Source of the DNA: Escherichia coli
Lineage (GTDB): Bacteria > Pseudomonadota > Gammaproteobacteria > Enterobacterales > Enterobacteriaceae
Length of the DNA stretch: 64,000 bases
Reading direction: 5' to 3' (one strand)
Assembly: GCF_003018255.1 (NCBI RefSeq)
Contig: NZ_CP027440.1
Each line of letters starts with the position of its first letter. Positions within the stretch are counted from its first letter, which is position 1. A model generated the notes under the pieces. The model saw only the letters and a list, made by a program, of their open reading frames with translations. It did not search any database and had not been told where the DNA came from. Shown one piece after another: positions 60,535 through 60,642 of this stretch. The position numbers and the translations under genes are program-made.

Positions 60535-60642
60535 ATGCCGACTAAACGCTTTGATAAAAAACACTGGAAGATGGTGGTGGTGCTACTGGCAATCTGTGGC
60601 GCTATGTTGTTGCTACGTTGGGCAGCAATGATTTGGGGCTGA
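60535..60642 (+). CDS. yniD: Small membrane protein, 35 aa (MPTKRFDKKHWKMVVVLLAICGAMLLLRWAAMIWG)
   Basis: Internal ATG of track ORF 60424..60642 gives a single-TM 35-aa product matching YniD. Confidence 0.6.
   Translation: MPTKRFDKKHWKMVVVLLAICGAMLLLRWAAMIWG

Follow-up and report, generated by a model that had tools for sequence, protein, structure and literature searches.

The interval 60535-60642 on the + strand of a 64,000-nucleotide (nt) stretch of the Escherichia coli chromosome (contig NZ_CP027440.1; this whole stretch is called the window below) is the coding sequence (CDS) of yniD, ATG CCG ACT ... GGC TGA, comprising 35 codons and a stop with the product MPTKRFDKKHWKMVVVLLAICGAMLLLRWAAMIWG, and there is little doubt that it represents a genuine gene, independently transcribed and translated into a 35-residue protein. 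An earlier sequence-only reading of the window had named YniD, together with YdiH and PheM, among the small proteins that are internal to, or shorter than, the six-frame calls of open reading frames (ORFs). The assignment of the interval to a small, predicted single-pass membrane protein is based on its identity with K-12 b4535, the match to the family profile NF041491, the proportions of synonymous and nonsynonymous differences (pS and pN) and an AlphaFold2 model. The window extends from mdtK to yniA and is collinear with K-12 MG1655 at approximately 1,743,760-1,808,600 with 98% identity, the sole large difference being an 864-bp deletion within an arpB/EspL2-like gene. The K-12 counterpart, yniD b4535 (1805165-1805272), is 100% identical in DNA to the window copy, and the DNA shared identically by the window, K-12 and strain DETEC-S792 reaches from about 100 nt 5' of the start codon to 58 nt 3' of the stop; in DETEC-S792 the Prokaryotic Genome Annotation Pipeline (PGAP) label at the same position is 'small membrane protein YniD'. 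Compared with the K-12 YniD (b4535; NF041491; PF28032 YniD-like), therefore, the DNA, protein, neighbours, length and start are all the same, and the gene is without difference. The closest of the 5,426 complete E. coli genomes showed 99.4% identity over window positions 60000-61500. The mismatch-free run of 296 nt between the window and K-12 around yniD was considered as a possible peculiarity of the locus and rejected, as 29 such runs reach 250 nt or more and together cover 18% of the window.

An ORF of 35 codons is by itself no more than chance would supply, because mechanical calling gives 529 ORFs of 35 amino acids (aa) or more in the window, and 1,253 of 14 aa or more. The yniD frame exceeds this expectation because of its family match and of the codon-position pattern of its substitutions. 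Thus, the NCBIfam profile NF041491 (YniD equivalog) matched with 85.7 bits against the curated cut-off of 40 (E = 1e-24), its positions 1-34 of 34 aligning to the YniD residues 2-35, and all YniD homologues carry the precomputed Pfam annotation PF28032. The homologous-protein search, with the 40-aa form of YniD as the query, returned proteins of 35-36 aa in Escherichia, Citrobacter, Enterobacter, Lelliottia and Kluyvera with 80-97% identity and the invariant C-terminal LRWAAMIWG. In the DNA alignment of eight orthologues from five genera, the frame of 35-36 codons is kept, the flanks diverge beyond alignment, and the variable columns are distributed over the three codon positions as 16/3/28 (chi-square p = 4.6e-5); the mean pS was 0.72, meaning that the synonymous sites are saturated across the genera, the mean pN was 0.10, and the ratio of nonsynonymous to synonymous substitution rates (dN/dS) amounted to 0.03-0.08 wherever dS was not saturated. 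A similar distribution of the variable columns (17/8/25) was obtained for codons 1-27 of 43 distinct orthologous CDS, codons 28-35 having been left out of the count as fixed by the search pattern. As judged from these substitutions, the yniD reading frame is under strong purifying selection; conservation across Enterobacteriaceae, which the sequence-only reading had proposed as a check on its small ORFs, is accordingly found for YniD. Within the species, a 221-nt segment with yniD is present in 5416 of the 5426 complete E. coli genomes (in 5079 of them at no less than 99% identity), and the median copy number per genome is one. As a side observation, the E. fergusonii-type YniD (L010, L012) has 83-86% identity to that of E. 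coli with a pS of 0.73, and the Lelliottia and Enterobacter proteins are closer to it (89-91%); this divergence may be noise, given only 35 codons, or could stem from an exchange at this locus connected with the insertion of arpB.

The gene does lie inside a longer frame, as the sequence-only reading had stated: it is enclosed by a mechanical 72-aa ORF opening with GTG (60424-60642, +), whose N-terminal 37 codons are outside the gene, and a second in-frame upstream ATG occurs at 60520, from which the product would be 40 aa. Since both ATG 60520 and GTG 60424 are in frame, with no stop between, and extended YniD forms of 44-63 aa are annotated in some database entries, a product longer than 35 aa had to be weighed, starting either from ATG 60520 (40 aa, MQDTG-MPTKRF...) or from GTG 60424 (72 aa). 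Such a product is most improbable. Of seven orthologues, five carry an in-frame stop 1-4 codons 5' of the MP start, the N-terminal extensions of the database entries cannot be aligned from one genus to another, and neither the upstream ATG nor the GTG of E. coli is conserved, the ATG at 60520 being read as ACG in the close relative Escherichia sp. L084. The Shine-Dalgarno element AGGA (60524-60527, +) is located 7 nt before the ATG at 60535, whereas only AAGAG, at 2 nt, precedes the ATG at 60520; a Shine-Dalgarno-like purine-rich match no farther than 18 nt from the ATG was found in 40 of the 43 distinct orthologous upstream regions. The NCBIfam profile spans residues 2-35 only and on the 72-aa translation aligns with residues 39-72 alone. 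Moreover, the GTG at 60424 would be missing from the predicted transcript, because the conserved -10 element described below (60490-60498) lies 3' of that start. The translation thus starts at ATG 60535, not at ATG 60520 or GTG 60424, and the 35-aa annotation is correct because of the upstream stops, the non-aligning extensions, the ACG of L084 and the conserved Shine-Dalgarno-like match.

For the transcription of yniD, an extended -10 promoter element TGTTACACT (TGnTAnACT) is predicted at 60490-60498 (+) by phylogenetic footprinting. In 40 of the 43 upstream regions, the form TGnTAnnnT, or more widely TTTGnTAnACT, occupies positions -37 to -45 relative to the ATG, and the sequence around it diverges among the orthologues. 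The transcription start would accordingly be near 60504-60507, with a 5' untranslated region (UTR) of about 30 nt. The consensus promoter scan gave no + strand sigma-70 site upstream of yniD, so that the promoter call rests on conservation. In our own reading of the upstream sequence, CCCTTGAT was considered as a sigma-32 -35 element and rejected on spacing. The peaks of sigma-factor SELEX (systematic evolution of ligands by exponential enrichment) labelled 'thrS/yniD intergenic' were not used for the yniD promoter, as the coordinates given for them place them in the arpB region, 1.5-2 kb upstream. The convergent genes yniD and ydiY are separated by a GC-rich hairpin (60662-60686) that is terminator-like on the - strand, i.e., for ydiY, with 11 pairs (7 G-C) and a T-rich tail; on the + strand it folds with -14.7 kcal/mol (z = -1.94) and has a weak U tract, and it may also terminate yniD, serving both genes. 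A weak terminator-like hairpin (8 pairs, including two G-U) with a T-run behind it was also noted 5' of the yniD promoter on the - strand (60427-60450). It was rejected as an antisense terminator and is probably due to chance, being weak and altered by substitutions in K-12.

The protein itself shows the features of its family, namely a length of 33-36 aa, a basic N-terminus, one hydrophobic helix and the C-terminal RWAAMIWG. The single transmembrane helix suggested in the sequence-only reading is supported both by hydropathy, the most hydrophobic 15-residue segment being 13-27 with a mean Kyte-Doolittle value of 3.04, and by AlphaFold2, which from an alignment of 20 sequences modelled one helix over residues 4-34 (mean predicted local distance difference test score, pLDDT, 85.3). 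Residues 1-12 include one Asp along with five Lys/Arg, against a single Arg in the last eight residues. By the positive-inside rule, the established basis for topology assignment, YniD is predicted to cross the inner membrane once as a helix, with the N-terminus in the cytoplasm, the core residues 13-27 spanning the membrane and the RWAAMIWG end lying at the periplasmic leaflet. Residues K9, H10, V14, L17, I20, C21, A23 and L25 are invariant in the 43 distinct orthologues; R5, M1 and P2 are invariant as well and belong to the region of the MP-start selection, by which M1 and P2 are fixed. The stretch R28-G35 (RWAAMIWG) is fixed by the pattern in the 43-orthologue set, yet it is invariant in the independent homologue alignment too.

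The synthesis of YniD was reportedly confirmed by chromosomal tagging in the 2008 work of Hemm et al. The ribosome profiling (Ribo-seq) of E. coli under acid stress (PMC10746267, Table S8) lists yniD among the 'previously known sORFs' (small ORFs), with fold changes at the levels of ribosome-protected fragments (RIBO) and RNA and their adjusted p-values. The sequence-only reading had proposed ribosome profiling as a check and would have been contradicted by frames without ribosome occupancy; these published values are quantified for yniD, so that such a contradiction did not arise. The detection of YniD by mass spectrometry by Treitz et al. is stated in PMC12529367. In PMC7858067, an insertion of IS2 into the arpB/yniD intergenic region was described as fixed in a lineage under long-term stationary phase, and YniD was characterised there as an uncharacterised protein with a predicted transmembrane segment.

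In all Enterobacteriaceae examined (Escherichia, Citrobacter, Enterobacter, Lelliottia, Kluyvera, Trabulsiella, Yokenella, Pseudenterobacter and Huaxiibacter), yniD keeps its place in the gene order thrS (-), yniD (+), ydiY (-), pfkB (+), and in every genus it is monocistronic, with its neighbours on the opposite strand. Co-transcription with partner genes, of the CydX or KdpF type, was found in none of the genera examined. In E. coli, a gene of the arpB/EspL2 family is inserted between thrS and yniD, and this insertion is absent from the other genera and from some Escherichia genomes (L034, L050). In the window, this arpB/ShET2-EspL2-family gene (59338-60368, +) is degraded and differs from those of other strains by the 864-bp deletion relative to the K-12 arpB and by a frameshifting 1-nt deletion near 60179 in comparison with DETEC-S792, whose CDS is intact and encodes 343 aa; both deletions together leave ORFs of 307 aa and 49 aa. 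Two further side observations concern the surroundings of yniD in the other genera. In Lelliottia (L003, 2840-2932) and Enterobacter (L009, 2810-2902), a gene for a YncL-like small membrane protein of 30 aa (MNVSSRTVV...FHWF) lies 70-100 nt 5' of yniD on the same strand, which makes two tandem small-protein genes beside thrS; the yncL of E. coli is located elsewhere. This arrangement in Enterobacter and Lelliottia hints at a functional link between the two small membrane proteins. Between yniD and ydiY, a gene of 76-81 aa with a signal-peptide-like N-terminus and no Pfam match was seen in Lelliottia (L003, 3309-3542), Kluyvera (L005, 3376-3621) and Enterobacter (L009, 3258-3488), in each case on the - strand; E. 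coli and Citrobacter lack it.

Outside of Enterobacteriaceae, the fixed synteny is not seen. The motif scan of 100,044 species genomes revealed family members of 33-35 aa also in Pantoea, Erwinia, Tatumella and Rahnella, where they are not beside thrS or ydiY and some of them apparently use GTG starts (VAKKLAATKHWKM...); in the distant relatives with called genes that were examined (Tatumella and two others), the family gene stands alone. That the YniD family is narrow follows from the exhaustive profile search, in which 1.84 billion representative proteins yielded only 30 matches. Neither the homologue search nor the motif scan named any Salmonella or any credible Klebsiella match, apart from one partial, 100%-identical database entry labelled K. 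pneumoniae; the absence from these genera is not proven by this, because the DNA pattern demanded the exact motif, and the missing matches suggest either a loss of the gene or a divergence of the motif. Six of the 78 matches of the motif scan (SAR86, Blautia, Porphyromonadaceae, Sphingomonadales, Paracoccus and a marine alphaproteobacterium) were taken as chance, because they come from unrelated taxa and most of them are without the small-ORF C-terminal context.

As regards the role, CydX, AcrZ, MgtS, MgrB and KdpF are characterised small modulators in the inner membrane of E. coli. With its 35 residues YniD would be too small for an enzyme or a channel alone; it might dock helix-to-helix onto a larger inner-membrane protein, which it would stabilise or modulate, and the invariant KHWKM, IC and RWAAMIWG positions might form the interface with this protein. 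The juxtamembrane KHWKM motif and the C-terminal half, towards the periplasmic leaflet, are proposed as the binding surface because the strongest selection falls there. By analogy with the characterised proteins, it is about an even question whether YniD is an accessory or a modulator of a larger membrane protein. The narrower proposal, that it is a dedicated regulator or subunit of an inner-membrane protein common to part of Enterobacterales, with the juxtamembrane KHWKM and the C-terminal RWAAMIWG as the docking elements, is a possible one, somewhat less probable than its opposite.

A number of points weigh against the interpretation given here. Topology and modulator role alike are predicted, and the promoter is a phylogenetic footprint with a predicted start only. 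To our knowledge, no experiment assigns a function or a partner to YniD. The neighbours of yniD, placed on the opposite strands, offer no candidate partner, and the distant members (those of Tatumella, of the P0090-carrying genomes and of a metagenome contig) are found in unrelated contexts with no common neighbour. The literature search on 'YniD' found biological matches, none of them functional, the discovery and tagging papers being outside its coverage. Finally, yniD was without a response to acid in PMC10746267, the RIBO log2 fold changes being -0.004 and 0.20 (adjusted p 0.99 and 0.73) for the two acid comparisons, at pH 5.8 and a second one. Co-regulation with the acid-inducible neighbour ydiY was considered separately and is not supported by these values.

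Other functions of the locus may be conceived. In size, the single hydrophobic helix and the basic end, YniD resembles the toxins of the Ldr, TisB and Hok types, so that it might be a type I toxin-like peptide, able to depolarise the membrane and normally held in check by an antisense RNA, for which the weak terminator-like hairpin on the - strand upstream of the gene (60450-60427) could be taken as a sign. This is very unlikely, as the type I toxin-antitoxin systems are recognised by a gene for an antisense RNA, in cis or adjacent, by a 5' UTR that is long and structured and by a patchy or multi-copy distribution, and none of these was found for yniD: the 5' UTR predicted for it is short, at about 30 nt, nearly every E. 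coli genome (5416/5426) has the gene, in a single copy (median of one place per genome), its chromosomal position is stable across genera, and neither an antisense promoter over yniD in the promoter scan nor an Rfam small RNA (sRNA) at the locus was detected. The hairpin is weakened by substitutions in K-12, and the protein is detectable in ordinary growth.

It is scarcely credible that yniD is a regulatory leader (an upstream ORF, uORF) that serves only the control of a downstream gene, in the way of pheM for pheST, even though the window does contain one such peptide, that of pheM. No same-strand gene follows yniD, the next gene, ydiY, being convergent with the hairpin between them, and the layout is the same in the other genera; the amino-acid sequence is strongly selected over the whole length, including the invariant C-terminus, which is atypical for attenuator peptides. 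A small membrane protein, with a modulator role as the proposal for its function, is the reading retained for yniD.

The other small genes that had been named for the window were likewise located. As had been supposed, ydiH (21175-21363, -; 62 codons and a stop) lies inside a longer ORF, the 89-aa GTG frame 21175-21444, and its protein is identical to K-12 b1685 and matches Pfam PF15930 over positions 1-62 of 62 with 146.5 bits against the gathering value of 27; the Ribo-seq table of PMC10746267 has the same YdiH protein with the Shine-Dalgarno sequence GAGGA. The gene pheM (55470-55514, -; K-12 b1715, also supported by Rfam) encodes the leader peptide of the pheST-ihfA operon, rich in Phe (five of its 14 residues), and is enclosed by the Rfam Phe_leader RF01859 (55396-55520, -; 74.4 bits against 55); it is followed by the hairpin GCCTCCCAGTGGAGGC and a T-run upstream of pheS, as is proper to a member of this leader family. 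The 14-aa PheM is indeed shorter than the ORF calls, as it falls below their length cut-off, and it is not internal to a longer ORF, because no other start codon lies between the preceding in-frame stop and its ATG. The sequence-only reading had also allowed for further intergenic small ORFs without being able to support any; a fourth small gene of the window, annotated in K-12, is ynhH (11736-11930, +; b4817, identical protein), which encodes 64 aa from a TTG at 11736 inside the 70-aa TTG ORF 11718-11930. It is overlapped out of frame by the mechanical pykF ORF (11722-13350), which has 542 aa instead of 470 aa through an upstream extension of 72 codons.

Several RNA features of the window also reached the Rfam gathering score, such as HPnc0260 'antisense RNA' (2793-2955, -) over the second tRNA-Val (2755-2828) and the downstream sequence, STnc540 (51397-51555, -) between btuC and ihfA, RydB (20948-21008, -) and RprA (26613-26720, +).

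The general statement that small-protein genes of the window are easily missed or mis-sized is thus borne out, the mechanical calling over-extending yniD, ydiH and ynhH and dropping pheM. Six-frame tracks drawn from the first ATG, GTG or TTG after a stop mis-size the small genes, and with 529 such ORFs of at least 35 aa against roughly 60 real genes in the window, small proteins need comparative or profile evidence. As a discovery this has little weight, and the lesson is methodological: yniD, ydiH, pheM and ynhH are all previously annotated in K-12 and RefSeq, hence already known, and the additions made here are modest, comprising the phylogenetic support of the yniD start, the conserved extended -10 element, the family signature with its distribution, and ynhH as the fourth example. 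The start, the promoter and the conserved motifs of yniD may be used by anyone seeking the function of this core small membrane protein.

Among the known systems, the other two small proteins first named for the window are unrelated to YniD, YdiH (PF15930) being a soluble-looking protein of 62 aa and pheM with its Phe_leader being a regulatory leader peptide rather than a functional protein. From CydX, AcrZ, MgtS, MgrB and KdpF, YniD differs by having no sequence similarity to any of them, and by its position, as cydX and kdpF are encoded together with their partners, whereas yniD shares an operon with no candidate partner. It is like them in belonging to the class of 30-50 aa proteins, with one hydrophobic helix and charged ends, and in being chromosomal, conserved and expressed.
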